The position numbers and the translations under genes are program-made. This document shows, piece after piece, positions 1,653 through 18,182 of a DNA stretch of 20,000 bases (position 1 is the first letter of the stretch; each line of letters begins with the position of its first letter). The notes under the pieces are model-generated. The model was not told where the DNA came from, did no database searches, and was given only the letters and a program-made list of their open reading frames with translations. Source of the stretch: an uncultured virus (IMG/VR IMGVR_UViG_3300037504_000331) (Duplodnaviria; Heunggongvirae; Uroviricota; Caudoviricetes); the IMG/VR virus record IMGVR_UViG_3300037504_000331, one strand, 5' to 3'.

Positions 1653-2528
1653 TTAGATCGCGGTGCCTTCGCCGGGTTTACCTTGGGCGCTGATCGAGCC
1701 CTTGAGGACACCTTGGTGCTCGTAGTCGGCAAGCTCGAAGTCGTGGAACTCGTACTTGTCGATGGCATCCGGCGTGCGATGAATGATGAGTCGCGGCTCC
1801 GGCAGCACCATCCGGCTGCACTGCTCCTTCACCTGATCGACGTGGTTCTCGTAGATGTGAACGTCGCCGCCCTGCCAGATGAACTCGTCCGCCACACAGC
1901 CGAGCTGGTCTGCGACGAGGTGCGTCAGGAGAGAATACTGGGCGATGTTGAAGGGGACGCCCAGGAAAGTGTCGCACGAGCGCTGGGTCATGACCAACGA
2001 GATGCGGTTCTCGATACGGTAGAACTGAAGGTTGAAGTGACACGGCTTGATCGCCATCGCCTTGAGCCAGTCGGGCCGCCACGCGGTAATCATGTGGCTG
2101 CGCGCCTCGGGCCGATCACGCAGACTGTCCATCGTGACCTTGAGCTGGTCGATCTCCTTGGCGCCGCCGAACTGATGGCGCAGACGTTCGTCGATGGTCC
2201 AGTGCCGCCACATATAGCCGTAGAGCGGGCCGACGATACCGTCTTCGTTCGCCCAGGTATCCCAGATGTGGACGCCGTTTTGATGCAGGAACGAGACATC
2301 CTGATGGCCGCGCAGGAACCAGAGCATCTCGACGGCGAGCGACTTCCACTGGGTCTTCTTGGTCGTGAAGACGGGAATCTTGTAGCCGCTCAGGTCAAAC
2401 CGGAGCTGTTCGGCGAAGCTCTCGTACCGGCCTTCTTCGTCCGCGGGCTTGCGGTACGGCCCGGCAAGAATGCGCTCGCACATATTCAGGTATGCGCGCT
2501 CGCCGTACATCGAAGTCAGGTCTTTCAT
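1653..2528 (-). CDS. thyA: Thymidylate synthase (ThyA family)
   Basis: VEMLWFL, IWDTW, GPLYG, catalytic PCH, QRSCDTFLGVPFNIAQY, GDVHIYENH. Confidence 0.95.
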   Translation of the reverse strand: MKDLTSMYGERAYLNMCERILAGPYRKPADEEGRYESFAEQLRFDLSGYKIPVFTTKKTQWKSLAVEMLWFLRGHQDVSFLHQNGVHIWDTWANEDGIVGPLYGYMWRHWTIDERLRHQFGGAKEIDQLKVTMDSLRDRPEARSHMITAWRPDWLKAMAIKPCHFNLQFYRIENRISLVMTQRSCDTFLGVPFNIAQYSLLTHLVADQLGCVADEFIWQGGDVHIYENHVDQVKEQCSRMVLPEPRLIIHRTPDAIDKYEFHDFELADYEHQGVLKGSISAQGKPGEGTAI

Positions 2529-3875: not shown

Positions 3876-3904
3876 AAGCTATCGACCGTGGTCCCTCCTG
3901 TCAA
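3876..3904 (-). promoter_or_regulatory. Sigma70-like leftward promoter TTGACA-17-TAGCTT
   Basis: Minus strand TTGACA GGAGGGACCACGGTCGA TAGCTT. Confidence 0.75.
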
Positions 3905-3946
3905 CGCTCTAAAACCACACACCAGTGTGTTGACAGGAGGGACCAC
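3888..3946. repeat. Perfect 18-bp inverted repeat formed by two back-to-back promoters
   Basis: GTGGTCCCTCCTGTCAAC (3888-3905), 23-bp spacer, GTTGACAGGAGGGACCAC (3929-3946). Confidence 0.95.
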
Positions 3947-4427: not shown

Positions 4428-6611
4428 TTGTCTAACGATAGCAACTCCCGGCTGGAATGGGCTCTCAAGCTCGCGGAGCAGGGATTCCGTATCTTCCCGC
4501 TTCAGCCCGGGTCGAAGACGCCTTTCAAGGGCTCTTGGAAGGACATGGCGACGACCGATCCGGATATGATCCGGACATGGTTCGAGAACAATTCGTCGAT
4601 CAACTACGCCGTAAACCCAGATGACAAGCACGTCGTCATCGACATCGACCGCAAGCCAGACGAGATCGACGGACTCGACAACTTCGTATCCTTGGCGGTC
4701 GAGTCGGACGACTGGGATTGGGCGGATTTCGATTCGTGGGAAACCTTCACGGTCCAGACTCCGTCGGGCAAGGGCGGCTACCACGTCTACCTGCGCACGG
4801 ACGAGGCCGTAGGTAACTCTCACCAGCTCTGGCCCGAATCCATCGACATCCGCGGCGTCGGCGGCTACGTCGTCGGTCCAGGCTCTTACCTCGATGCAGG
4901 AGAGGGCAAGAGCGGCGAGTACAGCGTCGTGAAGGACGCTGAGCCTGCTCCCGCCCCCAAGTGGGCCAAGGACCGCTTCAGGCGCGGCGGAGAGCGCACA
5001 GCAGCCGCAGACGAAGCATTGTTCGACCAGGACACGCCGGCCGCTATCGAGCGCGCCCGTGATTTCCTCTCCCGCCGCAAAGTCGCCGTCGAAGGCCAGA
5101 AGGGTGAAGAGCACACCCTCGTGACCGCCATGCACCTTCGCGACATCGGTCTCTCGGCCGAGAAGTGTGTCGAGGTGATGTGCGAGAAGGGCGGATGGAA
5201 TGAACGCTGTGAGCCGCCGTGGGAGATCGGTGAGCTATCGGTCAAGGTCGAGAATGCTTACAAGTACGCGAAGAACCAGCCTGGGCAGAAGCAGGTCGAA
5301 GCCGACTCCTTCGGCGACATGGAGGGTGTGCAGGACATCTCAGAGATCGCCGAGAAGTTCGAGCAGGAGCGCGGAGCGCCGGCCGAGACTGCCGAGGGTC
5401 TAGCCTCCCTGTTTTTCAGGGGCGCTAGCCTGCAACATCGCGGACACCGCCGGGAGATGATCGTCCCGGAGTGGCTTATGGCCCACGGCCTCACCGCTGT
5501 CAACGCCAAGCGCGGCCAGGGCAAGTCCATCATGATGATCGACCTCGCCTGCCAGATCGCGCTCAAGGAGGACGGCGACGACCGCACGTGGATGGGTCAG
5601 CCTATCGCGGACGGCTGGAAGGTGATCTACATCTGCGGCGAGGACGACGTGGGCCTTGAGGAGAACCTGCGCGCCTGGATGAAGTACCATGACAAGGAGC
5701 TGCCAGAGGACCGGTTCGCCGTCATGGCGGGTACGGTCGACCTGATGTCCGCGGACTCGGTGAAGGCTTGGACTCAGTTCCTCTACGACAACTTCTCCCA
5801 GGAGCGCACGGTCATCTTCGTGGACACTTGGCAGCGCGCATCGAGCCGCGGCGGCCAGAACAAGGACGAGGACATGCAGATGGCCGTCCACCACGTCGAG
5901 GCGATGGCGAAGAGCCTGGGCGGCCCTGTGGTCGCGGCCTTTCACCCGCCGAAGGACGGCTCGAAGACGCTACTGGGCTCGTCCGTGCTTGAGAACTCCA
6001 CGACCGGTATCTGGGACATAGAGGACTCCAACGGCGCCCGCAAGCTCTCCGTATCGCGGATCAAGGGCAAGGGTATCGGCAACTACGTCCTCTTCGATGT
6101 CCACGAGGTCGATCTCGACGAACAGGACGACTTTGGCAAGCAACGCTCCGGCGCCATTGCGAAGCGCTTGGGCGGGACAGAGGAGCTAGCTGTGAAGAGC
6201 GAGAACCTGCGCAAGACCGTAGCGAAGATCATCTCCGAGATCGAGGAGTGGCGGAAAGCGAACGACCCGACCACCAAACGAAAGCTCACTCCCAACGAGA
6301 TCGACCGGTTCATAGGCCAGGGCGGCAAGCTCGGTGAAATGATCTCTGAAATGGACTCCGACGGATATGCGACTCCAGATGCAAAGTGGGCGAAGAGCGT
6401 TTTCGACCGGCTGCGTGATGTCAACTTCGTGCATGGCAAGTACCGCAATAGGATACCAGAGCTGTTCTCCGATCATCCTATGGATATGGGCGACGGCTAC
6501 GTTCTGCGCCTTATCAAGCAGAACGAGAAGATGAGTTACTTCGAGTTCGAGCGCGGCACCCTCTTCAGCGATGATGAGGACGAGGACGACAGCGACAAGA
6601 TCGACACATAA
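4428..6611 (+). CDS. Bifunctional primase-polymerase (Prim-Pol) fused to a RepA/AAA_25-like helicase
   Basis: N-terminal GFRIFPL..K.P, VVIDID, TPSGKGGYHVY, IDIRGVGGYVVGPGS; C-terminal AKRGQGKS (Walker A), YICGED, VIFVDT (Walker B), FHPPK..LGSS. Confidence 0.9.
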   Translation: MSNDSNSRLEWALKLAEQGFRIFPLQPGSKTPFKGSWKDMATTDPDMIRTWFENNSSINYAVNPDDKHVVIDIDRKPDEIDGLDNFVSLAVESDDWDWADFDSWETFTVQTPSGKGGYHVYLRTDEAVGNSHQLWPESIDIRGVGGYVVGPGSYLDAGEGKSGEYSVVKDAEPAPAPKWAKDRFRRGGERTAAADEALFDQDTPAAIERARDFLSRRKVAVEGQKGEEHTLVTAMHLRDIGLSAEKCVEVMCEKGGWNERCEPPWEIGELSVKVENAYKYAKNQPGQKQVEADSFGDMEGVQDISEIAEKFEQERGAPAETAEGLASLFFRGASLQHRGHRREMIVPEWLMAHGLTAVNAKRGQGKSIMMIDLACQIALKEDGDDRTWMGQPIADGWKVIYICGEDDVGLEENLRAWMKYHDKELPEDRFAVMAGTVDLMSADSVKAWTQFLYDNFSQERTVIFVDTWQRASSRGGQNKDEDMQMAVHHVEAMAKSLGGPVVAAFHPPKDGSKTLLGSSVLENSTTGIWDIEDSNGARKLSVSRIKGKGIGNYVLFDVHEVDLDEQDDFGKQRSGAIAKRLGGTEELAVKSENLRKTVAKIISEIEEWRKANDPTTKRKLTPNEIDRFIGQGGKLGEMISEMDSDGYATPDAKWAKSVFDRLRDVNFVHGKYRNRIPELFSDHPMDMGDGYVLRLIKQNEKMSYFEFERGTLFSDDEDEDDSDKIDT

Positions 6612-6643
6612 GAGAAGGGCCCCGAGCGGCAACCCGGGGCCCT
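6609..6643 (-). terminator. Intrinsic terminator hairpin between convergent operons
   Basis: AGGGCCCCG-N10-CGGGGCCCT stem (6616-6643), followed on the minus strand by TCTCTTA. Confidence 0.65.
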
Positions 6644-6675
6644 GAAGTCCATCTAACACATGAGGTGGTGCTAGC

Positions 6676-7071
6676 CTACTCGTGGATCACGACCGTCGCA
6701 AGAGGCTTGTCGTATGCCTCGGCGAGGTGGCAGGCGTTCACCCAGTCGCGACCCTCCTGCTTCCAGCCGGAGAAGAGCTTATTCAACGCCTCGTTACCTT
6801 GGCGGTATAGCTCCTGCGAATCGTGCGGATCGCCGTAATTCTTGCCCTGCTCATCCGCCAAACGCTGGATGTTGGCAAGGGCGATCCTCGGTGCTCCCGA
6901 CTCCACCTCGATGATGCTCTGGGTCAAGACCTGCGGCCGAATCCTCGACCGCAGGCTGATCCGGAAGCACATGGAGTTGTCGGGCCGAAGGTACAGCTCG
7001 ATGCGCAGCCTCCACGTCTGATCGACGAGCTGCGGTTCACCGTAGCTGTGGCCGTTCTTCTGTCCCTCCAA
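6676..7071 (-). CDS. Hypothetical protein
   Basis: TAAGGAGG RBS before TTG. Confidence 0.7.
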   Translation of the reverse strand: MEGQKNGHSYGEPQLVDQTWRLRIELYLRPDNSMCFRISLRSRIRPQVLTQSIIEVESGAPRIALANIQRLADEQGKNYGDPHDSQELYRQGNEALNKLFSGWKQEGRDWVNACHLAEAYDKPLATVVIHE

Positions 7072-7081
7072 GGCGACCTCC

Positions 7082-7618
7082 TTACTTGCGCCGCGCGAGC
7101 CGGCGGCTGATGGCGTCCCGGCTGAAACCGCTGGCCGCAGCCGCCGCCCGCACGCTGCCGTGCTGGTCGACGAGTTCCGCAGCCATGGCCGTCGTCAGCG
7201 TGGACGGGTCCTTGCGCGTCTCCTGGGCCTTCTGGGCGGCCTCCACGCCCTTCTTCGCCATGGCACGCTTCTTCAGCCCCGAGATGCGCTCACGGGCCTG
7301 CTGAGCGCCTTCACGAGCCTGATCCATGAAGCCGCGGCGGCGCTGCCGGCGATGGTAGTTGCGGATCACCCGCACGACCTCGATGGGGACGCCACGGTAG
7401 ACGGGGACGTTGTGCGTGGCCTGCTGAAGCGTGATCTCGCCGTTCTCGTACTTCCGGCGCATGCCGGCGCTCTTGAAGTGCGTCACGTGCTTGATCGGCT
7501 TGGCCGGGTTCCAGAGCGGCCGACCCTTCCGGTCGAACATCTGGTTCCCCATCTCGTCCGTCACCTTCGTGGCGCCGGGAATGATCGAAGTCTTCTCCAT
7601 GCGGAGTTGTGCGCTCAT
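7082..7618 (-). CDS. Basic hypothetical protein with C-terminal HTH module
   Basis: GGGAGACG RBS; C-terminus LVDQHGSVRAAAAASGFSRDAISRRL. Confidence 0.75.
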   Translation of the reverse strand: MSAQLRMEKTSIIPGATKVTDEMGNQMFDRKGRPLWNPAKPIKHVTHFKSAGMRRKYENGEITLQQATHNVPVYRGVPIEVVRVIRNYHRRQRRRGFMDQAREGAQQARERISGLKKRAMAKKGVEAAQKAQETRKDPSTLTTAMAAELVDQHGSVRAAAAASGFSRDAISRRLARRK

Positions 7619-7631
7619 GTGGTTCGTCTCC

Positions 7632-7811
7632 CTATTTGTTGAACATCGACCGGATCATGAGGTACGCGATAGCCGGCCAGCCGAAAACGCCGATGAGATA
7701 GAGCCACCATCCCATCTTTCGCCCCCGCTTCCGATAGCCGTAGGCGCCGATCTCGGTGAGACCGATCCCAGCTAGCAGATAGAGGGTAACGTACAAAGCC
7801 CAAGCGCTCAT
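7632..7811 (-). CDS. Small membrane protein, 59 aa, two predicted TM helices
   Basis: Own translation MSAWALYVTLYLLAGIGLTEIGAYGYRKRGRKMGWWLYLIGVFGWPAIAYLMIRSMFNK; ATGA overlap with the upstream gene. Confidence 0.7.
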   Translation of the reverse strand: MSAWALYVTLYLLAGIGLTEIGAYGYRKRGRKMGWWLYLIGVFGWPAIAYLMIRSMFNK

Positions 7812-8026
7812 CGGGACTTCCCCTTTCCTACGCAGGTCGGGCAGATGAACTTCCAGCGGTCCTTGTCCCGCCGGCCCCGCCAGCCGAAGAGGCGTATGAG
7901 GTCGATAGCTTCCAGAAGGTCACGCTGGGTGATCTCGCAGATACCCGGCATGTCCTCGATCTGGCCGCACTCATCGCACCCCAACGCCTCTTCTTGACCT
8001 GCGTAGACCTTTGGGAGGACCGGCAT
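7808..8026 (-). CDS. Small putative zinc-binding protein
   Basis: CDEC and CPTC pairs; abuts the GapR gene stop. Confidence 0.7.
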   Translation of the reverse strand: MPVLPKVYAGQEEALGCDECGQIEDMPGICEITQRDLLEAIDLIRLFGWRGRRDKDRWKFICPTCVGKGKSR

Positions 8027-8497
8027 CTACTCCATCCCGATGGCGGTCTTGTAGACGTGCAGAAGCTCCTCCTGCTCGGCACGATCCTGCTGATCCATCT
8101 TGCGCAGGCGCACGAGCTGGCGCATGACCTTCGTGTCGAACCCGTTGGCCTTGGCCTCGGAGTAGACCTCCCGGATGTCGGCGCCGATGTTGGCCTTCTC
8201 CTCTTCGAGCTTCTCGATCCGCTCGATGTAGGACTTGAGCTGGTCGCCCGTGATCCCCATCGTGTCGCCGCCGGTCTTGGTCTTCGGCTTCTCCTGGGTC
8301 TCCTCGGCGCCGTCGGAGTTGTGGCCGATGCCGGGCTCGGTCGACTCCGCGGCCGGCTCCTCCGTCTTCGGCTTCTTGTTGAGAACTCGCATGATCTTGT
8401 CGCGCGAGTACCCGCTGTTCGCAGCCGCTTTCCGGATGCTGCCGTGCTCGTCGACCAGGGTTTTGGCCTGATCGAACGTCAAGTCGCTATCAGCCAT
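8027..8497 (-). CDS. gapR: GapR (DUF2312) nucleoid-associated protein with an extra N-terminal HTH module
   Basis: QLKSYIERIEKLEEEKANIGADIREVYSEAKANGFDTKVMRQLVRLRK is the GapR signature; GGGAGACGAC RBS before ATG 8497. Confidence 0.9.
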   Translation of the reverse strand: MADSDLTFDQAKTLVDEHGSIRKAAANSGYSRDKIMRVLNKKPKTEEPAAESTEPGIGHNSDGAEETQEKPKTKTGGDTMGITGDQLKSYIERIEKLEEEKANIGADIREVYSEAKANGFDTKVMRQLVRLRKMDQQDRAEQEELLHVYKTAIGME

Positions 8498-9152
8498 TGT
8501 CGTCTCCCTTCTCCGGTGTGAACTCTTTCTGCGTGGCACGGTAGATGCGCGGCTCCGTGCCGATGCTCCGCTTGTCCCAGACATGCCATGCGAAGGCATG
8601 CCTTGGACCATGCTCAGGCTTGTCCCGGAACCACCAATCCCAGCGTGGGCGGGTGAGCAGCCGCAGCTCGAAGGCATAGTCCGGACGCTCGAAGATGTCC
8701 CGCCACGTCGAGGCGTTGCCGAACTCCTGGCGGACCAGGACGGCTGCCACTTCCGGATCGTACTCGTGCATCTTCCGGACGAACTGGATGTGGTTGTTCT
8801 TCAGGAACGGCGGGTTCGTGATGATCGCCCCGATCTCCATCAGATCGAGTCGCATCGGGACCTCGTTCAAGAAATCCACTGGTTCACGCCACGCGAAGTC
8901 GTCGGAGAGATCGTCGAGGTTGATGTCGGAGCAGAACACAGCGTCGTCGGTCTGCTCCTGTAGCACCCGGGCCATGTCTCCGCGGCCGGCAGCGGGTTCC
9001 CAGATCACGCCGTTGATCGCACTGAGCGGCGTGCCGTTCCGTTCCATCATCCCGACCAGAGCGCGGGTAAGCCACTCCTGGGTGTAGTAGGCATCGCCCT
9101 CGCGGCGAGCATACTGGGACTCGTAGAAGCTCTTGTCGTTGGACTTGCCCAC
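8490..9152 (-). CDS. Amino (N6-adenine/N4-cytosine) DNA methyltransferase, orphan phage type
   Basis: DAYYT, SAM motif I IWEPAAGRG, catalytic motif IV IITNPPF. Confidence 0.85.
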   Translation of the reverse strand: MGKSNDKSFYESQYARREGDAYYTQEWLTRALVGMMERNGTPLSAINGVIWEPAAGRGDMARVLQEQTDDAVFCSDINLDDLSDDFAWREPVDFLNEVPMRLDLMEIGAIITNPPFLKNNHIQFVRKMHEYDPEVAAVLVRQEFGNASTWRDIFERPDYAFELRLLTRPRWDWWFRDKPEHGPRHAFAWHVWDKRSIGTEPRIYRATQKEFTPEKGDDNG

Positions 9153-9182
9153 AGTCGTCTCCTGGTGTTCGGTCGGTCTCGG

Positions 9183-9212
9183 AACCTAGCCCGGTGCGGT
9201 CCCTCCTGTCAA
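9183..9212 (-). promoter_or_regulatory. Sigma70-like promoter TTGACA-18-TAGGTT for the MTase-GapR operon
   Basis: Minus strand TTGACA GGAGGGACCGCACCGGGC TAGGTT. Confidence 0.75.
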
Positions 9213-9213
9213 C

Positions 9214-9254
9214 GGCAGATGGGAAGTTACGACTCGGGCAGATCGAGGGTTACG
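9214..9254 (-). repeat. Two variant copies (one extra base) of the 17-bp element
   Basis: Plus strand GGCAGATGGGAAGTTACG (9214-9231) and GGCAGATCGAGGGTTACG (9237-9254). Confidence 0.65.
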
Positions 9255-9729
9255 TCGTCCAGACAGCGCGCTTGCCTAGGATGTTGTCGCGCTTTTCCCG
9301 CATGGCGTCGATGGCGAGGCCATGGCAGTGGTTGTTGGCCTGGAATCGCCCGGTCTGAGTGCCTGTGTGACCCTTGACGTGCCGCATGGAGAGCTTGGCG
9401 TTCTTGGTCTTAACCAGCTCATGCAGCTTCTCGACGCCGGCCTTCGAGCCCCGACGCCGGGCAGGCTGCTCGCCTTCGATCATCCGGATCGCCTCGGCAC
9501 AATCGCTCTGCACGAGCAGGATGTCGCCGGGCTGGGCGACGCCGCTACGGAAGGCCAGATGCACAGCGTTGACGATGGCATGCAACTCGGCATCGCCCGT
9601 CACCCTGTACGAGCCCTTCATAGCGGCGCCTTCCCAGGAGACTCCGCGGTCGGATCGGCAGTATGCACCCCAGCCGGCAGCGCGCGTCTTAGGGCATACA
9701 CTCGCGTCTGCGAAGATGGAGACGAGCAC
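9250..9729 (-). CDS. Ribonuclease HI-like protein
   Basis: IFADAS..GWG, AELHAI, VQSDC, HVKGH, terminal N..C..LA. Confidence 0.85.
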   Translation of the reverse strand: MLVSIFADASVCPKTRAAGWGAYCRSDRGVSWEGAAMKGSYRVTGDAELHAIVNAVHLAFRSGVAQPGDILLVQSDCAEAIRMIEGEQPARRRGSKAGVEKLHELVKTKNAKLSMRHVKGHTGTQTGRFQANNHCHGLAIDAMREKRDNILGKRAVWTT

Positions 9730-9732
9730 GGC

Positions 9733-9942
9733 TCATCCCCGCATTGCCATGGCGCCCGGGCCGTCGTCTGCCTGCCCCTGCTGCGGGTGAAAGCGATCCA
9801 TGACGATGTAGAACGCCGGTACAGTCCCGCTGTGGTGGAGTTGATTGAAGGTGTGCAGGCGCCAGCCGTCCTGCCCACGCTTATTCAGCCACCCGTTGAT
9901 GTCGTCGCTTTCTTCGAGCGTAACATGCAGGTACTCGAACAT
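9733..9942 (-). CDS. Small hypothetical protein (DUF4177-like pattern)
   Basis: FEYL..LNKRGQDGWRL pattern; GGGAGACG RBS. Confidence 0.65.
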   Translation of the reverse strand: MFEYLHVTLEESDDINGWLNKRGQDGWRLHTFNQLHHSGTVPAFYIVMDRFHPQQGQADDGPGAMAMRG

Positions 9943-10183
9943 CGCTCTGCGTCTCCCTTTCGATTCCGACGATCCGGTATCCGACGCCGTGCTTGGACTC
10001 GATCTGGTAGCCTTCGCGCCGGAGATTGTAGACGAGCACCTTCAGCGTACCGCCCATGGATGCCTTGTCCAGGTGCTTGTCGTTCCGCCATCCGGGCCAC
10101 AGCCGGTCATGAATCTCCCCATGGGAGTAGAAGTGACCCGGCCGTGACCGCAGGATGGATAGAAGGCGCTCTTGCTTATTCAC
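9881..10183 (-). CDS. Stand-alone OmpR/PhoB-type winged-helix DNA-binding domain
   Basis: QERLLSILRSRPGHFYSHGEIHDRLW..TLKVLVYNLRR..IESKHGVGYRI; no receiver domain; GTG start at 10183. Confidence 0.75.
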   Translation of the reverse strand: MNKQERLLSILRSRPGHFYSHGEIHDRLWPGWRNDKHLDKASMGGTLKVLVYNLRREGYQIESKHGVGYRIVGIERETQSDVRVPACYARRKRRHQRVAE

Positions 10184-10475
10184 CCCAACGATCCTCGTGA
10201 CTGCCCCAACGCTTGCGCGGCCGGTGCTCAGACGGATCGGGGGCAACATACTTGCCGCCCTCCTGGATCACGGCCCGCAGATCGCCTGTACGGTCACGGA
10301 TGTACGTGCGGCCGGAGCCGTCGATGTACGGCTCGCGCTCGGTGTAGCCGACGGTCTCGCCATCCTCGTTCACGATCCATTGGCGTTCGCCGGCCTCGGC
10401 CGTGGCGATCATGAGGGCGAGCGCCGCAACCATGCTCGCGAGAGCTGCGCCCACAGCGATCCCCGGCCACTTCAT
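10176..10475 (-). CDS. Predicted exported protein
   Basis: MKWPGIAVGAALASMVAALALMIATAEA signal peptide with AxA site; ATGA overlap with the upstream gene. Confidence 0.7.
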   Translation of the reverse strand: MKWPGIAVGAALASMVAALALMIATAEAGERQWIVNEDGETVGYTEREPYIDGSGRTYIRDRTGDLRAVIQEGGKYVAPDPSEHRPRKRWGSHEDRWGE

Positions 10476-10888
10476 GTCTCGGGCTCCCCAAGGCGCGCGG
10501 CCCACGGATCGTTTGCACGATGACCCTCCCACGCCTCGTTGAACGCCTCGTTGACGTGCTGCGGCCGGCTGTGGTCCGGGTGCATGCCGTTCTTGAAGAC
10601 CCAGCGCAGCGCCCGAGCGAACTTGTTCTTCTGGTGCTGAATCTGCATGGACACCCGAGTCCAAGCGTCGGCGTCCTTCTCGTGCTCGACCGCCTGCTTG
10701 CGCGCGTCGTCGAGGTCTTGGGCGAGCGCCAGGATCAGGTTGTCTCCTGGGTTCCCGGTGACGTGCATCCAGGGCTCGCCGTATCGAAGCGAGACGACTC
10801 CTCCGCTCTCGTGCTGGATGACGGTGTACTTGCCATCGGATGTCGAGACGCGCAGCAGCTCGCCTGTACTCTCCTTCTCGATCTGCAT
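10472..10888 (-). CDS. Hypothetical protein
   Basis: ORF in operon context, GGAG RBS. Confidence 0.7.
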   Translation of the reverse strand: MQIEKESTGELLRVSTSDGKYTVIQHESGGVVSLRYGEPWMHVTGNPGDNLILALAQDLDDARKQAVEHEKDADAWTRVSMQIQHQKNKFARALRWVFKNGMHPDHSRPQHVNEAFNEAWEGHRANDPWAARLGEPET

Positions 10889-10892
10889 GGGC

Positions 10893-11357
10893 TCAGCTCC
10901 GGTTGATCGTGTTGTTGAGGGTCAGGCGGATTGCCTGCAAGCACTTGATCTGCGTGCGCAGCTCTTCGTCCTGACCTTCCCAAGCGCCGATCTCCAAGGA
11001 GTCGGCGATCATGCTCAGCTCCTTCTCGACACCTTCCAGGGTGACGTAGTAGTCGGCCCCGGCGAGCTGTTCTTCGGTCGGATCGTCCAAACCGTCCTCG
11101 ATCAGATTCTTGTCCGGGTAGTCGTCCGTGACCCGCCGACTGGCGGCTGGGCTGTACTCGGGATGCGGCCCGTTGTCCTCGCCGGACCAGTCGCGCTCGA
11201 CATCCCGTGGGGTCGCGCCCTTCGTGGTCGTGACACCGCCCTCATCGGGCAGGTCGTCGGGCAGATCGTTAGTACGCGCCGCGGGCTTGCTCTGGGCCGG
11301 CTTCTGAGCCGGCTGGGAGCCGCCGGTCTCGTCCGGCAAGTCGTCCATGTCCACCAT
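10893..11357 (-). CDS. Acidic low-complexity hypothetical protein
   Basis: Start MVDMDDLPDE with AGGA RBS; repeated DLPD. Confidence 0.7.
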   Translation of the reverse strand: MVDMDDLPDETGGSQPAQKPAQSKPAARTNDLPDDLPDEGGVTTTKGATPRDVERDWSGEDNGPHPEYSPAASRRVTDDYPDKNLIEDGLDDPTEEQLAGADYYVTLEGVEKELSMIADSLEIGAWEGQDEELRTQIKCLQAIRLTLNNTINRS

Positions 11358-11359
11358 GG

Positions 11360-11881
11360 TTAGAGGTCCTTCTGTGGGGCGTTGTAGTCGTTCTTCCGGC
11401 GGGATACGTCGAGCGGTTGCTTGACGGGAGCCGGCCGGAACAACTCGGGCTGAAGGTCCTTGACCGAATTGTCGTCGCCGTACTCGTTCCGCAGGATCAT
11501 GAAGCGGCCGAACTGCGACGGCCGGCAGATGACCTCCACGCCTCGGCAGCCGTAGTGATCCTCGCACTTCTGCAAGGCCCGCAGCTCGTCGGCGCTCAGG
11601 CTGAAAGCCTCCTGGGCCGCGCGTATGAACGCGTTGCGCTTCATCCGGCGCTCGGGCAGCACGATCCGCACGCGGTCGCCGCTCATCCGCCCGGGCTTGG
11701 ACTCGGCCGGCGGAAGGCCCTCACGTTGAAGCGACTCGATCAGATCGTGAGCCTCCTCGGCGTAGTTGATGACAGCCTGGGAATCCAGGGATAGGCTTTG
11801 ACCTTCAAATTCACGAGCGTGATCCAAGAGAAACCTTAGCTTCCGCTTAGCGTCTCCTAAAACTCTGGTCGCATTCGTCAT
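11360..11881 (-). CDS. Hypothetical protein
   Basis: GGGAGACGAC RBS. Confidence 0.75.
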   Translation of the reverse strand: MTNATRVLGDAKRKLRFLLDHAREFEGQSLSLDSQAVINYAEEAHDLIESLQREGLPPAESKPGRMSGDRVRIVLPERRMKRNAFIRAAQEAFSLSADELRALQKCEDHYGCRGVEVICRPSQFGRFMILRNEYGDDNSVKDLQPELFRPAPVKQPLDVSRRKNDYNAPQKDL

Positions 11882-11893
11882 CTGTCGTCTCCC

Positions 11894-12094
11894 TTAGAAG
11901 GTGTACTTGTCGAGCAGCTCGTCCAGCTCGACCTCGAAAGCATGGCGGTCGCTCGCGGACACGATCACGCGCCCGTGGATTCCGACCTTGGCCGTCGTCT
12001 CCTCGCCGGCCTCGTCCAGGTACACAGTGCTGTACCAGTCGACGCCGGAGCTGAGCTTGCGATGCTCAGTGAAGCTCTTCTGATCCTTCGCCAC
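11894..12094 (-). CDS. Small hypothetical protein
   Basis: AGGAGG RBS before GTG. Confidence 0.7.
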   Translation of the reverse strand: MAKDQKSFTEHRKLSSGVDWYSTVYLDEAGEETTAKVGIHGRVIVSASDRHAFEVELDELLDKYTF

Positions 12095-12103
12095 GGGCGC
12101 CTC

Positions 12104-12310
12104 CTAGAACAGGATCACGTTGTCCTGGGTTTCCTCGATACGTTCTGCCTCGGCTTTGAGACGGTCGGCCTGTGCGCCGAGGCGGACTCGCTGCGGCTCA
12201 GGCGCGTCCCAGGCTTCATCCTCTATAGACCGGGCCTGGGCGCGGAGCATGGCCGCGTACTCTGCGCTGTCTTTGCGCAGATGTGAGTCGTCTTGTGGTG
12301 GTTGCACCAT
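12104..12310 (-). CDS. Small hypothetical protein
   Basis: GGGAGACGACC RBS. Confidence 0.7.
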   Translation of the reverse strand: MVQPPQDDSHLRKDSAEYAAMLRAQARSIEDEAWDAPEPQRVRLGAQADRLKAEAERIEETQDNVILF

Positions 12311-12322
12311 GGTCGTCTCCCA

Positions 12323-12357
12323 GACGGATCATCAGTACGCGTGGGCCCTCCTGTCAA
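12323..12357 (-). promoter_or_regulatory. TTGACAGGAGGGCCCAC promoter block followed directly by a degenerate 17-bp element over the -10 position
   Basis: Minus strand TTGACAGGAGGGCCCAC GCGTACTGATGATCCGTC TGGGAGACGACC ATG. Confidence 0.65.
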
Positions 12358-12815
12358 GAGCCTATGCTTTTCCAGTTAACGCCGCCGTCGAGCTGTCGCG
12401 TCACCGCATCCCAATCCGCCCGGCGGATCGCCTCCATGGCAACCTGATCGCGGAGCTTGCGCATCTTGGTGTCGCGCATTGCAGCTAGCATGTACGCCTT
12501 GGCGGCTGCGGCGTTGTTCGCGTCGGCGCCAAGCTCGTTCGCGATGCGCTCGCGCAAGGTTTCGTCCTGGGCCAGGGTCGCCACGATCACGGCCGTGGCA
12601 GCGTCGCCGTTGCCGGTGTCGATCACGGGCTTGTGCGGCAAGCGATCCTTCCGCGTCACGAACGCGAGCGTAAAGCAGATCGCCGGTACAAACGCGGCCC
12701 AGACGAGCCAGCCGACCCAGTCCTGGGGCCAGCCGTAGTCATAGAGCGATCCGGACAGGATCAGGACCACGTAAGCGCCGAACATCGGCAGCACCACATC
12801 GAGAATCTTGTTCAT
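12354..12815 (-). CDS. Membrane protein with two N-terminal TM helices
   Basis: ILDVVLPMFGAYVVLILSG and WVGWLVWAAFVPAICFTLAFV; GGAGG RBS before ATG 12815. Confidence 0.75.
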   Translation of the reverse strand: MNKILDVVLPMFGAYVVLILSGSLYDYGWPQDWVGWLVWAAFVPAICFTLAFVTRKDRLPHKPVIDTGNGDAATAVIVATLAQDETLRERIANELGADANNAAAAKAYMLAAMRDTKMRKLRDQVAMEAIRRADWDAVTRQLDGGVNWKSIGS

Positions 12816-12816
12816 C

Positions 12817-13878
12817 TCAGCGCCCCTCCATATCGGGCCATGCACAGTGAAGGCGTTCGACATCGCCGGCTTTGAACCAGAGCGCGTCGCCCGCCCCTAG
12901 CAGGTTCTCAGCGCCTCGACGGTCCAGGATGACGCGACTGTCGGTTCCAGAAGTGACGCGGAAGCACAGGCGCGTCGGCAAGTTGGCCTTGACCACCCCC
13001 GTGACCACGTCGACGCTCGGCCGCTGGGTTGCTAGCACGAGATGGACGCCGGCCGCGCGGGCAACCGCCGTGATCCGGCGAACCGCATCCTCGACCTGCT
13101 TGCCAGCCATAGTCATCAAGTCCGCGTATTCGTCCACGACGCAGACGATACGCGGGAGCTGGGCGCTACCCTGACCCTTCCGATGCAGGATCGCATTGTG
13201 CTCTTCCAGGGTCCGTGCGCCCGTCTTCTCCATGGCCTTGTATCGGTTCTGCATCTCCTTCACGAGCATGCGCATAGCCATGACGGACTCATTCGTGTCC
13301 GTGACGGGCGACGTGAGAAGGTGCGGCAAGCTCGCGAACTCCGCCATCTCCAAGCGCTTCGGGTCGATCAAGACCATGCGCAACTCCGTGGCGTCCAGGT
13401 TGTGGGTGAGCGAGCGAATCAGCGTGCGCAGGAACACGCTCTTGCCGGAGCCGGTAGAGCCGGCGACCAGAAGGTGAGGCGCCTCTGACAGATCGCCCAC
13501 AACGGGACGGCCGCAGACGCCCTTGCCCATAACGAACGGCAAGCGCATGTTCATCGCCTCGGCGACCGTCGCCTGCAACACGTCGCTCATGAGCACGCCC
13601 TGACGTTGATCCGGCCGCCGCGTGACCTCGAACGTGACAACGCCATCCTCGGGCCGGCTCACCGCCCGGCAGTCCTGTGCCCGCAACTGCATTGCGACCT
13701 CGTCCGCCAAGCCTCGGACCCTATTCACCTTGACACCCTCTTTCGGAGCCACGTCGAACAGGGTCAGGCAAGGGCCTTCCCGGATGTCCTCGACGGTCGC
13801 CGAGGCCCGGTGCTGCTCGAACATCATCTCAAGCTCGGCCGCCCGGCGGTCCATGTCTGTGATCTCGGGAATGCTCAA
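12817..13878 (-). CDS. FtsK/SpoIIIE-family ATPase, alpha-beta motor only
   Basis: APHLLVAGSTGSGKS, LIDPKRLE, VCVVDEYADLM, ARAAGVHLVLATQRPSVDVVTG, GAENLLGAGD; AGGAGG RBS before TTG. Confidence 0.92.
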   Translation of the reverse strand: MSIPEITDMDRRAAELEMMFEQHRASATVEDIREGPCLTLFDVAPKEGVKVNRVRGLADEVAMQLRAQDCRAVSRPEDGVVTFEVTRRPDQRQGVLMSDVLQATVAEAMNMRLPFVMGKGVCGRPVVGDLSEAPHLLVAGSTGSGKSVFLRTLIRSLTHNLDATELRMVLIDPKRLEMAEFASLPHLLTSPVTDTNESVMAMRMLVKEMQNRYKAMEKTGARTLEEHNAILHRKGQGSAQLPRIVCVVDEYADLMTMAGKQVEDAVRRITAVARAAGVHLVLATQRPSVDVVTGVVKANLPTRLCFRVTSGTDSRVILDRRGAENLLGAGDALWFKAGDVERLHCAWPDMEGR

Positions 13879-13893
13879 TGCCTGTTCCTCCTG

Positions 13894-13929
13894 GGCAGAT
13901 GGGCAGTACGTCGGCGGATCGCCTGTACG
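13894..13929 (-). repeat. Tandem pair of the 17-bp element
   Basis: Plus strand GGCAGATGGGCAGTACG tc GGCGGATCGCCTGTACG. Confidence 0.9.
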
Positions 13930-14781
13930 CTACTCGCGGTCGCTCAGCGGCACGCCCAGGTCGATCAACGCCTGCTGGGCAGCCTGGAATCGGTCGAGCT
14001 TCGCGCGGAACGTGAGCGCATTCTTCCGCGCCTGATCGCGGCTGCTGCCGCTGCGTCGGCCGTCGTCCGCGTCCACCTTCGCAGCGCCCTCGAATACGCT
14101 CAGCTCGTCGGCCCGCGTCTTCGCGAGCGGGTAGAGCTTGGCGAGCGCGGTCCAGGCGCGGTGCTGCTTGGCGTACAGGTCGAGTAGATGGTTCCGGAGC
14201 GCGGCCGGATCATTCAACGCGTGCCGGGGGACTCCGTACATGACCAGCACGTCGGCCTCGTCATCCTCGCCGATGTTGAAAGTCTGCTCGACCGTGACAG
14301 CGTCGCTGGCGCCGTCTTCCGCCTGCTCATCAAAGATGCGATCAAGCGCCTCCACGGCCGCGTCCTGGATCGCCGTAAAGTCCTGGTAAGGGCCGGCAAG
14401 GTGCTGGTGGCCTTGGCCTTGCGCGTCCAGGTGCGACGCCAGCTTGAGCTTGTCGATCCGCCACAGATGCCAGCCTTCATCCCACTCGATCACCAGAGTC
14501 AGGTCGTCCGTCACGTCGGCATAGAAGCGCGGCGCCGACGGGTCCGGTTTGAACAAGTCATCGTAACTGCGGCCCGGCTTGCCCGGGTTATAGCTCGGGT
14601 TGTCGTCCTCCGAAATGACCGGGTCCGAGTCCGGATCGAACAGCTCTTCGGCGGCCTTCTGCACGTCCTCGGGAACGCCGGCCGTGCCGTCCTCGTACAG
14701 GTTGAGCGCGGTGCCGTCGGCCTGGACCTGCACGCCGACCTCGTCGGCCATGCCCGGCACTAGAACAGAATGGATTCGCAT
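13930..14781 (-). CDS. Acidic hypothetical protein
   Basis: 283-aa ORF with AGGAGG RBS, flanked by element pairs. Confidence 0.8.
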   Translation of the reverse strand: MRIHSVLVPGMADEVGVQVQADGTALNLYEDGTAGVPEDVQKAAEELFDPDSDPVISEDDNPSYNPGKPGRSYDDLFKPDPSAPRFYADVTDDLTLVIEWDEGWHLWRIDKLKLASHLDAQGQGHQHLAGPYQDFTAIQDAAVEALDRIFDEQAEDGASDAVTVEQTFNIGEDDEADVLVMYGVPRHALNDPAALRNHLLDLYAKQHRAWTALAKLYPLAKTRADELSVFEGAAKVDADDGRRSGSSRDQARKNALTFRAKLDRFQAAQQALIDLGVPLSDRE

Positions 14782-14797
14782 GATGGGTGCCCTCCTG

Positions 14798-14833
14798 GGC
14801 GGATGGGGTGTACGTGGGCGGATGGGCAGTACG
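14798..14833 (-). repeat. Tandem pair of the 17-bp element
   Basis: Plus strand GGCGGATGGGGTGTACG tg GGCGGATGGGCAGTACG. Confidence 0.9.
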
Positions 14834-14841
14834 CCGGCCGG

Positions 14842-15423
14842 CTACATCTCGGGCGCGGGCTCGCCGCGATCCTTCGACTCGTCGAGGTTGACCGCGTCCG
14901 TCGCCTTGACGCCGGTCGAGTCCATCTCGCGCCATGCGTCGTTCCGGATCATGGCGGCCATTGGTTTGGCCTGGGCCATGGCCGACTCCTCGTTGGGCGC
15001 GTCCACGTCGACAGTCCGGCGCAGCGTCACCGTACGCTCGACCAGAACGCGGTAGCGGCTTTCGCCGGCATTGCGGCGAGCCTCGCGCGCCTCGACATCC
15101 TCGTTATGGACCTCGGCCCAGACCTCGAACGCGCGGTCGCGCAAGCGATCATAGATCGCCCGGGACAGCACGCCGTAGACGTTGTCGGTGCCGCTCGCGG
15201 CCTCCTGGAAGTCATCGGGGAAGCCTACTGTTAGATCGTCGAGCGCGCATTCCAGCAGGCTCGCGTTCATGATCGGCACGTGGCCGTCCACCAGCTCGTG
15301 AAGCCAGTCCTGGACCTCGCTCGCGTCCTGGTCGAGGTGGAGGTATTCGTGCGCCTGCTCCTGGACCTCGTCTCGCACGCGGTTTTCCAGGTCGCGCATG
15401 GTAGTCTTCTGCTCGTCTCGCAT
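14842..15423 (-). CDS. Ocr (T7 gp0.3)-like DNA-mimic anti-restriction domain fused to a C-terminal DpnD/PcfM-like domain
   Basis: DWLHELVDGHVPIMNASLL and TDNVYGVLSRAIYDRL resemble T7 Ocr DAIHMAADNAVPHYYADIF and TKDVIRILQARIYEQL (recalled from memory); D/E-rich. Confidence 0.65.
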   Translation of the reverse strand: MRDEQKTTMRDLENRVRDEVQEQAHEYLHLDQDASEVQDWLHELVDGHVPIMNASLLECALDDLTVGFPDDFQEAASGTDNVYGVLSRAIYDRLRDRAFEVWAEVHNEDVEAREARRNAGESRYRVLVERTVTLRRTVDVDAPNEESAMAQAKPMAAMIRNDAWREMDSTGVKATDAVNLDESKDRGEPAPEM

Positions 15424-15440
15424 GTCTGTCGTCTCCCGTT

Positions 15441-15478
15441 GGCGGATGATGTGTACGCGTCGGCAGCTTGCCTGTACG
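15441..15478 (-). repeat. Tandem pair of the 17-bp element
   Basis: Plus strand GGCGGATGATGTGTACG cgtc GGCAGCTTGCCTGTACG. Confidence 0.85.
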
Positions 15479-15482
15479 CGGG

Positions 15483-15497
15483 TTAAGAGAGGGTTAA
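15483..15497. promoter_or_regulatory. CtrA box TTAA-N7-TTAA
   Basis: TTAA GAGAGGG TTAA. Confidence 0.8.
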
Positions 15498-15682
15498 GCC
15501 TGGACCGATTCGAGGCACATCCCGAGCGTCGACTCGGCGTTGTCGATCATCTCGCGATAGGTCGCGAACGGACCTTCCCAGTCGGGGAAAATGACGTAGG
15601 GATTGGTCCACCAGTACCCTCGGGAGTCCAGCACGGCGCGAACGCTACCGTTGCGAAACTCCACGTTGCCCAGCTCGATCAC
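15494..15682 (-). CDS. Small hypothetical protein
   Basis: GTGA overlap with the upstream gene; stop lies in the CtrA box. Confidence 0.65.
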   Translation of the reverse strand: MIELGNVEFRNGSVRAVLDSRGYWWTNPYVIFPDWEGPFATYREMIDNAESTLGMCLESVQA

Positions 15683-16095
15683 AGGACTTGCAACGTCCCG
15701 TCGTCCGCCACGATCACGTCACACTGGGCGAACGTGCGCGCGGCCTTGTCCAGCGTCGTGCCGTGGGGATCGGGCCAGTCACCGTCCCAGAAGCCGGCGC
15801 CGTGGCCGTTGCGGGTGAGCCAGAAATCGTGTCCAGCCATCTCGAAAGGGCCGCTACCTTGCGGGCCGCGATTGTCGCCGTCGCGGATCGCCTGCACGAC
15901 TCCCTCAATCGCGAGGAACCGTACGCAGTCCGCCTTGATGCGCTCGGCCGACCGCGCGTCCAGGTCTTCCCGATCATAGTTGGCGTCGAGCGGGGAACCG
16001 CCGGTCTCGTCGGCGTTGTCCATCTCCGCCCAGAGCATCGCCGCGATGTAGGCAGCGATAAACGATTCGGTCTCAAGCATGGTCGCTTGCGTCAT
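15679..16095 (-). CDS. Conserved phage early protein of unknown function (GHDFWLTRNGHGAGFWD motif)
   Basis: ACGGGAGACG RBS before ATG 16095; motif recalled from phage hypothetical proteins. Confidence 0.75.
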   Translation of the reverse strand: MTQATMLETESFIAAYIAAMLWAEMDNADETGGSPLDANYDREDLDARSAERIKADCVRFLAIEGVVQAIRDGDNRGPQGSGPFEMAGHDFWLTRNGHGAGFWDGDWPDPHGTTLDKAARTFAQCDVIVADDGTLQVL

Positions 16096-16109
16096 GTTGG
16101 CGTCTCCCG

Positions 16110-16493
16110 TTACCAGCCGAGATTCAGGTTGCGCAGGATGTGTGCGCGGTTGTTCGCGGGCAGGATGTGATAGCTCGCCTTGAGGATCGCCGGCACGTTG
16201 AGGCGGTACAGGGCGGGGCCATCCGGCCCATAGTCGCGGACCAGGGTCACGGCGCCGCGCTTGGCGAGACGTTGCATGGCCCGCTCGGTCTCCTCGGCCG
16301 TGCCCCACGTCCAGCCATGATCGCGGGACCATTCGCCGCCCTGCTCCGCCATGTGGTCGAGCAGGGCGAGCATGTTGGGGCCGATCCGCCGGCCGCTTGT
16401 AAGCGCCTGCTCGGTCTCGTTTACCGCGTGGTCCTGCATCCGGCCGTTGATCCGGCCGTACTTGCCGGGGATGGGTTCGGCTCGCTTGGGCAT
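16110..16493 (-). CDS. Hypothetical protein, possible winged helix
   Basis: ACGGGAGACGAC RBS; LALLDHMAE..ETERAMQRLAKRGAV pattern. Confidence 0.7.
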   Translation of the reverse strand: MPKRAEPIPGKYGRINGRMQDHAVNETEQALTSGRRIGPNMLALLDHMAEQGGEWSRDHGWTWGTAEETERAMQRLAKRGAVTLVRDYGPDGPALYRLNVPAILKASYHILPANNRAHILRNLNLGW

Positions 16494-16550
16494 GCTGTCG
16501 TCTCCCGTTGTGAACGATGTCGGCTACCTGCCAACTATCGCCCAGATTTC

Positions 16551-16565
16551 TTAACAGAAGGTTAA
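16551..16565. promoter_or_regulatory. CtrA box TTAA-N7-TTAA
   Basis: TTAA CAGAAGG TTAA. Confidence 0.8.
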
Positions 16566-16801
16566 GACCGCGGGACCTTTTTGACCTCCTGGTCGACCAG
16601 CTCGGCGACGCCGTCGCGCGTCATCTCGAACTCGACCTCCTCGACCGTGACCAGCTCGGCCGCCTCTTTCGGGCCGTAGCCGCCGACCTCGACCAGATCG
16701 GTTTTCAGCTCTTTCGCGAGCCGTTGGGCGTCGCCCTTCTGGCCCCGGTATTGAACCGTGTCCTCGTCGCTCACCTTGTAAATCTTCCGGCTGCTCGCCA
16801 T
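16562..16801 (-). CDS. Small hypothetical protein
   Basis: AGGAGG RBS; stop lies in the CtrA box. Confidence 0.75.
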   Translation of the reverse strand: MASSRKIYKVSDEDTVQYRGQKGDAQRLAKELKTDLVEVGGYGPKEAAELVTVEEVEFEMTRDGVAELVDQEVKKVPRS

Positions 16802-16821
16802 GGTCTGTCGCCCCTCCTGTG

Positions 16822-16857
16822 GGCAGATGGGTAGTACGTTGGCGGATGGGGTGTACG
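16822..16857 (-). repeat. Tandem pair of the 17-bp element
   Basis: Plus strand GGCAGATGGGTAGTACG tt GGCGGATGGGGTGTACG. Confidence 0.9.
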
Positions 16858-16865
16858 TCGGCCGG

Positions 16866-18168: not shown

Positions 18169-18182
18169 GTTCGTCTCCCGTG

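Follow-up and report, generated by a model that had tools for sequence, protein, structure and literature searches.

Why would a virus place a sequence-reading domain in front of a protein that encircles DNA without regard to its sequence? GapR assembles as a dimer of dimers around duplex DNA through a ring of lysines and arginines, and does so without reading bases. The question is raised by P0001, a gene on the minus strand of the uncultured virus record IMGVR_UViG_3300037504_000331 (IMG/VR; Caudoviricetes), of which a stretch of 20,000 nucleotides (nt), hereafter the window, was analysed. P0001 is one continuous open reading frame (ORF) with three parts: an N-terminal helix-turn-helix (HTH) at residues 1–45, a linker at residues 46–80 and a C-terminal GapR domain at residues 81–156. 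An earlier note on this DNA, made from the sequence alone, had described such a fusion of an HTH to GapR, and the gene is real. GapR has been studied as a sequence-blind sensor of positive supercoils, with GapR-seq as a mapping tool (PMC8360656). The Caulobacter protein is reported to prefer overtwisted or AT-rich DNA and to stimulate gyrase and topoisomerase IV (topo IV) (PMC8510090, PMC13408042), and whether GapR acts as a direct regulator or as a topology sensor is openly debated (PMC13408042). The answer that we favour, at about even odds (a probability near 0.5), is that the HTH anchors tether a GapR clamp to specific DNA, where it serves phage replication or transcription.

Pfam, NCBIfam and PDB chains agree on the C-terminal GapR/DUF2312 domain that the earlier note had recognized. 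Residues 84–154 match PF10073 (GapR_DNA-bd) at E 1.5e-33 and 114.6 bits (cutoff 22.6), P0001 scores 113.8 bits on NCBIfam NF010247 (cutoff 94), and sequence matches of the domain in the PDB include 6CFY (E 6e-23) and the Caulobacter structure 6JYK (E 2.6e-19). AlphaFold2 (AF2), run with a 32-row alignment, returned the GapR fold of a long helix (residues 84–117) and two short ones, with mean predicted local distance difference test (pLDDT) scores of 84–97 over blocks of ten residues. The domain aligns without gaps to Caulobacter GapR over 70 residues, such that residue n of P0001 corresponds to residue n-67 of the Caulobacter protein. Described for the latter are DNA contacts at K34, K42, K49, K56, K59, K60, R63 and K66, dimer salt bridges R26/E47, E28/R65 and E31/K66, the tetramer-core residue Y82, the helix 3 N-cap D68 and the tetramer bridge R69 (PMC7498317). 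The dimer and tetramer contact residues given in that source are kept or conservatively replaced in P0001, R69 excepted; E88 of Caulobacter GapR lies beyond the aligned range, and Glu156 stands one position past it.

A tetramer model of four copies of residues 79–156 reached an interaction prediction score from aligned errors (ipSAE) of 0.76, against 0.00 for the best of three controls. In calibration the passing mark was reached by 20 of 30 same-chain solved pairs and by 1 of 23 solved single chains; the tetramer runs agreed in at least 92% of contacts, with partner pLDDT of at least 88. The homotetramer that the earlier note had suggested modelling was thus obtained, but since GapR tetramers have already been solved, the score may owe to resemblance to these structures and need not count as independent support. 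Caulobacter crescentus GapR (CCNA_03428 / CC_3319; 6CG8, 6JYK, 6OZX) and P0001 share the Pfam family and the three-helix fold. They differ in that the Caulobacter protein is chromosomal, single-domain and 89 amino acids (aa) long, whereas P0001, on a phage-like element, has 156 aa, an HTH and a 35-residue tether, and glutamine at the equivalents of K60 and R69. With its extra folded domain, P0001 departs from the small single-domain size of about 80–100 aa. The best explanation of its C-terminal half would be a working GapR module.

The GapR domain points to a host gene. In a scan of one genome per species, which returned 257 relatives, the best came from Rhodovibrio (R. sodomensis DSM 9895 and Rhodovibrio metagenome-assembled genomes; loci L085–L088), with 93% identity over residues 75–156; the chromosomal protein has 81 aa. 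Over residues 81–156, 73 of 76 residues are identical to the closest Rhodovibrio copies, and none of the 3 that differ is at one of the DNA-contact or salt-bridge positions listed above. Nucleotide identity to Rhodovibrio gapR over these residues is 86–90%, and BLAST to two Rhodovibrio genomes at gapR gave 86–89%, confined to positions 8023/8027–8257 of the window. Between phage and Rhodovibrio the synonymous divergence (dS) of the domain is 0.50–0.70 and the ratio of nonsynonymous to synonymous divergence (dN/dS) 0.06–0.09; judged by these rates, the domain is under purifying selection. The codons just upstream align as well (GGC-GGC-GAC-ACG-ATG in the phage, ATG-GCC-GAC-ACC-CAA in the host), with host Met1 at Gly76, and because they do, the N-terminal extension can be placed as starting exactly at the host protein start. 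Rhodovibrio GapR, which begins at Gly76 of P0001 and is without the HTH, the linker and the GHNS motif described below, is both the likely source of the domain and a likely partner in mixed oligomers. We conclude from these comparisons of sequence that the phage acquired the GapR domain fairly recently, by capture from the host or by recombination.

Other observations bear on the host. A second host-like gene, thyA (window positions 1653–2528), has 73% DNA identity over 824 nt to the R. sodomensis gene. The sequencing runs that contain the stretch are labelled as tidal-flat metagenomes, with small shares in hypersaline-lake and saltern runs. In four runs the depth at 8036–8257 rises from about 5–20 to 260–630, and extra contigs over the GapR domain end in loose sequence at 8254 and 8027; because of this jump in depth, host-type gapR can be called abundant in the same samples. 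With moderate confidence, the host can be taken to be Rhodovibrio, a salt-loving bacterium, or a close relative. Of the two gapR copies in R. sodomensis DSM 9895 itself (L086, L088), one is 93% and the other 89% identical to the phage domain. Helix 2 is different in the latter, whose locus has a GC fraction of 0.68 versus 0.73, and this copy may be a paralogue or lie on an island.

For the N-terminal module, which had been noted as HTH-like, AF2 gave a confident three-helix unit both within P0001 and on its own. Its helices have pLDDT 93–95 in the full-length model, and the segment folded alone adopts the same fold (87 overall, 94–95 in the core). The top structural neighbours found by VIA are all DNA-binding HTH domains, none significant alone: a LysR DNA-binding domain (best Z 5.6), the HTH of Tn3 resolvase (Z 4.7), and a mycobacteriophage repressor, ParB/KorB/SopB, NtrC1 and sigma region 4 (all Z ≤5.6). 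A structural neighbour in the ESM Atlas, a recombinase cluster carrying HTH_7, is a lead only. The best Pfam matches are below threshold, namely DUF7070 (E 5.5e-4, 20.1 bits; cutoff 27) and HTH_29 (E 9e-3, 16.5 bits; cutoff 28.1), and relatives of the module give sub-threshold matches to HTH_8, HTH_1, HTH_28 and HTH_23. A PDB sequence search with an HTH profile returned only chance nanobody and repeat-protein matches, with no stretch significant alone, and the ESM Atlas held no usable feature matches for the HTH or for residues 1–100 of ORF178, a nearby gene that carries a second copy of it. The models support an HTH fold for the 45-residue domain, without a specific family assignment. By count from the sequence, residues 21–45 hold eight Lys/Arg and one Asp, and the helix 2–3 region is strongly basic.

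The second copy forms the C-terminal 43 residues (7085–7213) of ORF178, two genes downstream of P0001. The two copies are identical at 22 of 39 residues (BLASTP, E 2e-11), have Ser-Arg-Asp at the start of helix 3 in common and are joined at the DNA level by a repeat (D9; 73% over 67 nt). A word-based search with residues 1–45 found only P0001 and its relatives P0002 and P0003. A profile built from the two window copies and run on 1.84 billion representatives with a cut at E ≤1e-3 gave 16 matches, one of them P0002, and the module is present in 10 of the 12 that were fetched. It stands at the C-terminus of three ORF178 orthologues (P0121, P0123, P0127), at the N-terminus of a phage exonuclease (P0128; phrog_704, E 4e-82), twice in a WhiB protein (P0122) and in four small proteins (P0132–P0135). 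In the serine recombinase/DNA invertase P0125 (Resolvase N-terminal domain, E 4.8e-43; phrog_125 DNA invertase over residues 3–192) it fills the C-terminal HTH slot (E 5.9e-6), a known DNA-binding position. P0124 and P0131 were rejected as carriers, being repeat or low-complexity false positives, and the long proteins P0126, P0129 and P0130, with 3–10 short stretches each in the profile search, were left out of the module count.

The pattern shared by the module is approximately LT-x-e-x-A-x-x-LV-x-EHGS-x-R-x-AA-x-x-S-G-y-S-R/K-d-x-i-x-RR. Two metagenomic orthologues of ORF178 (L083 and L084) are without it; in this lineage, therefore, the module has been joined to two different proteins. Taken together as sequence matches, these proteins define the HTH as a small mobile phage module attached to at least five protein types. 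Its likeness to the C-terminal HTH of serine recombinases and DNA invertases of the resolvase–Hin type consists of its place in P0125 and of the Tn3 resolvase neighbour. It differs from these in that the HTH of P0001 is joined to a clamp and not to a catalytic domain, and in that the module has no Pfam HTH_7 match.

Between the two domains lies the charged linker of the earlier note, which is Glu/Lys-rich with a net charge of -6 over residues 46–79 and is predicted to be disordered, pLDDT falling below 50 at residues 46–57 and 59–78. In P0002 the linker has 32 aa and a charge of -1, in P0003 55 aa and a charge of -12. An acidic linker acting as a DNA-mimicking brake on the clamp was considered and rejected, the charge not being conserved among the three relatives. 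Embedded in the linker is a GIGHNS motif. Forms of it, (I/V/A)GHNS, precede the GapR domain in loci L001, L007, L008, L010, L060, L061, L070 and L073, and of 74 domains from IMG/VR loci, 8 have GHN in the 45 aa before the domain, versus 0 of 78 from bacterial genome loci, although both sets are the best 80 by similarity to P0001 and the counts are therefore biased. (I/V/A)GHNS may be a linear motif specific to GapR on mobile elements.

The reading frame carries a coding signal along its whole length. GC content at third codon positions (GC3) is 0.92 over P0001, and 0.82, 1.00 and 0.94 over residues 1–45, 46–79 and 80–156, compared with 0.77–0.89 in the adjoining genes; because it is high in all three parts relative to the neighbours, the whole frame looks coding. 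The ATG at 8497 is preceded by GGGAGACGACA, and a GGAGACGA-type ribosome-binding motif also stands before the methyltransferase gene upstream (AGGAGACGACT) and before ORF178 (AGGGAGACGAACCAC). Since the ATG has this motif, overlaps the stop of the methyltransferase gene by 8 nt and aligns with the starts of P0002 and P0003, it is likely the start of P0001. A 216-aa ORF from ATG 8677 was rejected, its extra 60 codons being the methyltransferase gene read in another frame, as was an antisense ORF at 7994–8521 (plus strand, 175 aa), the GC3 signal and all homology lying on the minus-strand frame. The best explanation is that the gene yields one full-length protein of 156 aa. Table 1 lists the features.

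Table 1. Features of P0001 and its surroundings. Positions are those of the window; rows without positions give residues of Caulobacter GapR followed by their P0001 equivalents.
Feature	Position	Strand	Details
HTH–linker–GapR gene P0001	8027..8497	minus	471 nt, 156 aa; TAG stop 8027-8029
Three-helix HTH, residues 1-45	8363..8497	minus	AF2 helices 8-18, 21-28, 32-40; then basic tail NKKPKT
Disordered linker, residues 46-80	8258..8362	minus	rich in Pro, Glu, Lys, Thr; pLDDT <50
GIGHNS motif, residues 56-61, within linker	8315..8332	minus	from alignment
GapR/DUF2312 domain, residues 81-156	8030..8257	minus	helices 84-117, 122-133, 136-153
DNA contacts K34, K42, K49, K56, K59, R63, K66			K101, R109, K116, K123, R126, R130, K133; all basic
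DNA contact K60			Gln127; lost; 7/8 contacts basic
Dimer salt bridges			R93/E114, E95/R132, E98/K133; kept
Y82 and D68			Y149 and D135; both kept
Tetramer salt bridge R69			Gln136; lost
Met80 codon, proposed internal start	8258..8260	minus	aligned with host Gln5 (CAA)
Shine-Dalgarno-like GGGAGA	8503..8508	minus	5 nt 5' of P0001 ATG
DNA methyltransferase-like gene	8490..9152	minus	phrog_799, E 2.7e-24; upstream of P0001
72-aa ORF	7808..8026	minus	two CxxC pairs (residues 17-20, 62-65); ATG abuts P0001 TAG
ORF178	7082..7618	minus	178 aa, C-terminal HTH copy; no known family
Terminator-like hairpin closing the gene string	6616..6643	minus	12-pair stem, 9 GC pairs, T-rich tail
GCRGATS-N4-GTACG region	10277-19705		e.g. 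13895/13914, 14799/14818, 16823/16842, 18184/18203, 18835/18854, 19085/19108, 19627-19705

In the reading that we favour, a GapR tetramer would carry up to four HTH anchors on flexible tethers of about 35 residues. The anchors would recognize particular sites, most probably in phage DNA, and by raising the local concentration of clamps would bias where the sequence-blind, supercoil-sensing ring loads. Replication and transcription of the element would gain GapR-type help with overtwisted DNA through stimulation of host gyrase and topo IV, and co-assembly with host GapR would drag part of the host pool to the same sites. Such co-assembly is probable, and mixed tetramers are likely because the assembly surfaces are near-identical to those of the Rhodovibrio protein. 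The idea, already raised in the earlier note, that the HTH targets GapR to specific sites gains indirect support, since the HTH is homologous to the one in the P0125 recombinase slot and is basic in its helix 2–3 region. That the anchors would hold phage and host GapR together, as mixed tetramers, on the phage repeats described below and so divert gyrase and topo IV stimulation from the host chromosome is a more speculative proposal, and we think it doubtful. If true, the phage would have taken over a nucleoid protein not through an inhibitor but through chimerisation, and the repeated addition of DNA-reading domains to phage GapR, an HTH here and FtsK-gamma in another case treated below, would represent a general phage strategy.

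A natural GapR with a sequence-reading anchor would show evolution re-aiming a topological clamp. The HTH–GapR protein offers a test of directed GapR loading and so bears on the debate over regulator versus sensor. It also appears to be a clean case of phage capture of a host nucleoid protein, with ancestor and partner still recognisable at the nucleotide identity given above; because they are, hetero-oligomer formation and hijacking of the host protein are testable with two small proteins.

Several observations weigh against the favoured reading. DNA binding by the HTH is putative: VIA Z scores of at most 5.6 fall in a range common for small helical domains, Foldseek with the HTH model found no match at E ≤1e-3 (N15 Cro came top, probability 0.97), and the HTH is below every Pfam gathering score. 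In the GapR part, P0001 misses the GapR equivalog NF052541 (87.8 bits; cutoff 140), and glutamines stand in for one DNA-contact lysine, leaving seven of eight contacts basic, and for the arginine of the tetramer salt bridge. The linker varies in length and charge among P0001–P0003, so no fixed geometry is implied. Single-domain GapR homologues are common in phages (148 records of cultured phages by tblastn), so the HTH is not needed for phage use of GapR. No candidate binding site in the window is tied to P0001; the conspicuous repeats lie 2–11 kb off and may be promoters. The element itself is only probably a phage: the 20-kb window contains no structural genes and its megablast search found no cultured phage similar in DNA.

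Could the fusion be an artefact, whether an assembly chimera of a phage HTH gene with a host gapR read or a gene-calling error? The abundance of host-type gapR in the same samples lends itself to such an error, as does the breaking of the assembly graph within the GapR domain, at 8123–8207, in several runs. Yet the GapR part is 86–90%, not 100%, identical to host DNA and no host copy is identical. Contigs at the depth of the element cover 7532–8123 (run X3, 3 differences) and 8096–8234 (run X5, 0 differences), and contigs from X3 (8207–8532) and X4 (8207–8460), two runs not listed as a possible source of the stretch, span the GapR/linker junction with 0 differences. The same order of HTH, linker and GapR occurs on other contigs in P0002 (151 aa, 93% identity) and P0003 (179 aa, 66%), and P0001 is free of any stop codon or frame change; we regard the chance of an artefact as close to negligible. 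The suggestion in the earlier note that an internal methionine could yield a canonical-size form fared little better. Taken to its end, it holds that translation runs mostly from Met80 to give a canonical GapR of 77 aa, with the HTH and linker minor or non-functional. An ATG does stand at codon 80, four codons 3' of the host-start equivalent, and it is derived (host CAA) and common to P0001 and P0002. However, Met80 corresponds to host Gln5, host Met1 aligning with Gly76 instead, and position 80 is glutamine in P0003, P0004, P0005 and the host; P0003 keeps its HTH and linker all the same. The 15 nt 5' of Met80 (ACCGGCGGCGACACG) are without a GGAG-type motif, whereas ATG 8497 has one together with coupling to the upstream stop. 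The HTH is moreover conserved relative to P0001 (39/45 and 31/45 residues identical among P0001–P0003) and folds confidently, and the whole extension has coding-type GC3, all of which makes predominant translation from Met80 very improbable.

A different use of the full-length protein would be to hijack or poison host GapR, with the HTH and linker tails on mixed tetramers mislocalising or blocking the host clamp. As a dominant-negative takeover factor it would shut down host replication or free topoisomerases for the phage. This overlaps with the favoured reading and differs from it in the beneficiary and in whether clamp function is kept. The three differences in 76 residues from Rhodovibrio GapR, none at a listed contact or salt-bridge position, would allow it, and the two proteins would meet, host-type gapR contigs being 50–100 times deeper (260–630 versus about 5). 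There is also precedent in truncated H-NS variants on mobile elements and in T7 protein 5.5, which are reported to modulate host H-NS directly (PMC6606824). We nevertheless find it unlikely: a dN/dS of 0.06 and the retention of seven of eight DNA contacts suggest selection on a DNA-binding ring that a poison does not need, and the neighbours of the gene are for replication, with no obvious early host-takeover block around it. Alternatively, P0001 might be a transcription factor in which GapR is a scaffold for tetramerisation or DNA wrapping while the HTH reads operators or promoters; in a variant, the HTH instead binds a protein, for example RNA polymerase, and ORF178 shares its sites or its partner. 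T4 DsbA, a GapR-family homologue, is described as possibly ringing double-stranded DNA and recruiting RNA polymerase to late promoters (PMC7824862), a proposed regulatory role for a GapR-like phage protein. Strand-biased repeats lie just upstream of many genes (26 versus 0.49 expected), the two proteins that share the module and its Ser-Arg-Asp are two genes apart, and the module also accompanies WhiB-type regulators. Against this, the repeats are without a link to the HTH, and the operon of P0001 itself has only a degenerate copy near 9203–9245. Near-identity to a host nucleoid protein argues that GapR activity matters. The function of T4 DsbA is itself only proposed, and the comparison is by description, in which no added HTH is mentioned. 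A role as a transcription factor, in either form, strikes us as quite unlikely.

How unusual is the architecture? On the matches compared, it is rare: GapR relatives of 85–273 aa at E ≤0.001 number 1720, and among the best 120 of these the whole query is covered only in P0001–P0003; the closest relatives without the HTH, among the matches listed, are P0004 (94 aa, 78%) and P0005 (101 aa, 71%). In IMG/VR, 108 of 216 candidate stretches encode a GapR relative, of which the best 80 were kept, and none of the 15 ORFs examined has an in-frame HTH before GapR. Apparent IMG/VR fusions starting at residue 21–28 (L005, L010, L073) or 39 (L006, L039) cross stop codons and were rejected. The tblastn matches in cultured phages span the GapR part only, save one row, a match in Brevundimonas phage Kikimora over residues 15–154, which resolved into two separate genes.

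Other additions to phage GapR do exist. The protein ANH49054.1 of Ruegeria phage 45A6 (351 aa; annotated 'cell division protein FtsK'; phrog_4212) carries GapR (E 4e-32) behind an FtsK-gamma winged helix (E 4.9e-19), and P0136, which matches phrog_4212 over its full length, has the same architecture. Like P0001, the 45A6 protein places a DNA-reading helical domain N-terminal to GapR; it differs in that FtsK_gamma is not homologous to the HTH of P0001 and in having a further N-terminal region. An RMF-like domain accompanies GapR in L001 (8496–9134), P0006 and P0008 (PF04957, 27.6 bits; cutoff 27.9), and P0138 combines GapR with T5orf172/MUG113. In 9 of 11 longer GapR proteins GapR is N-terminal, with long unannotated tails. 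As a separate observation, the RMF-like lineage (L001, P0006, P0008, P0009) has a Rhodovibrio-like GapR with a host-like Met-Ala-Asp-Thr start embedded internally. In the GapR/DUF2312 literature consulted, we found no report of GapR with an added HTH or FtsK-gamma. One account within it presents single-domain phage GapR as a first and treats phage GapR as an auxiliary gene, likely host-derived (PMC12185513). Such single-domain homologues, among them Azospirillum phage Cd gp10 and Erythrobacter phage R34L1 ORF28, share with P0001 the GapR domain and belong to phages of Alphaproteobacteria.

P0001 is part of a tight leftward string of genes on the minus strand, from 9152 to 6676. The 72-aa ORF that follows has no Pfam or PHROG match and looks like a zinc ribbon; it is likely co-translated with P0001 because its ATG directly abuts the P0001 stop. 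Further members of the string are a 59-aa hydrophobic ORF, ORF178 and a 131-aa ORF. ORF178 has a conserved N-terminal region, with motifs around W36, H44-x-x-HF and VPxxR, and found no match in Pfam, PHROG, NCBIfam or the Atlas, no tblastn match in phages and no relatives in an IMG/VR scan of its family. Around the string are genes for RNase H, a primase-polymerase with an AAA_25 helicase domain, an HNH endonuclease, ThyA and a dCMP deaminase, and also an SNF2 helicase and an FtsK-like ATPase. By gene content, the neighbourhood is a phage-type block of replication and nucleotide-metabolism genes.

The right part of the window is rich in repeats. A 16-nt motif, GCRGATS-N4-GTACG in plus-strand orientation, has 26 matches with at most one mismatch, against 0.49 expected, all on one strand. 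Most matches come in pairs, 19–23 nt apart, that sit directly in the interval from one gene to the ribosome-binding site of the next leftward one. The repeats may act as phage promoters or operators and may be targets of the HTH. DNA that could be tried as an HTH target comprises the paired CGTAC-N4-SATCYGC repeats, TTAACCCTCTGTTAA and an AT-rich island at 19705–19870. A search for the 17-nt repeat in viral contigs returned 17 loci with one match each and no arrays, and is uninformative.

Within positions 19603–19870 the AT-rich island has a GC content of 32–37% in an element of 63% GC, with many AATTTGA-type repeats. Following it on the minus strand are four tandem 21-bp copies of the 16-nt motif, then AAGGAG and an ATG at 19603, and the gene there probably starts at 19603, not at the listed 19700. 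The arrangement resembles that of an origin or of a strong regulatory region. AT-rich DNA is a reported preference of GapR proteins (PMC8510090, PMC13408042).

There are two further repeats. The near-palindrome TTAACAGAGGGTTAA occurs five times (15477–15497, 16551–16565, 17609–17629, 18218–18238 and 18873–18893), each copy just upstream, in the sense of the minus strand, of paired repeats or of a gene start. A 15-mer containing TTGACA (TTGACAGGAGGGACC, transcribed strand) occurs four times (3888–3946, 9198–9221 and 12343–12366). Where the leftward genes and the rightward primase gene diverge, the gap contains two of its copies, inverted relative to each other, and one lies upstream of the methyltransferase–GapR string. 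The 15-mer may be a -35 region; a sigma-70 consensus scan of 6500–10500 gave 0 promoter-like sites. In the repeat-rich right part, the minus-strand ORF at 14842–15423 weakly matches the ocr-like anti-restriction family phrog_2568 (E 1.2e-4).

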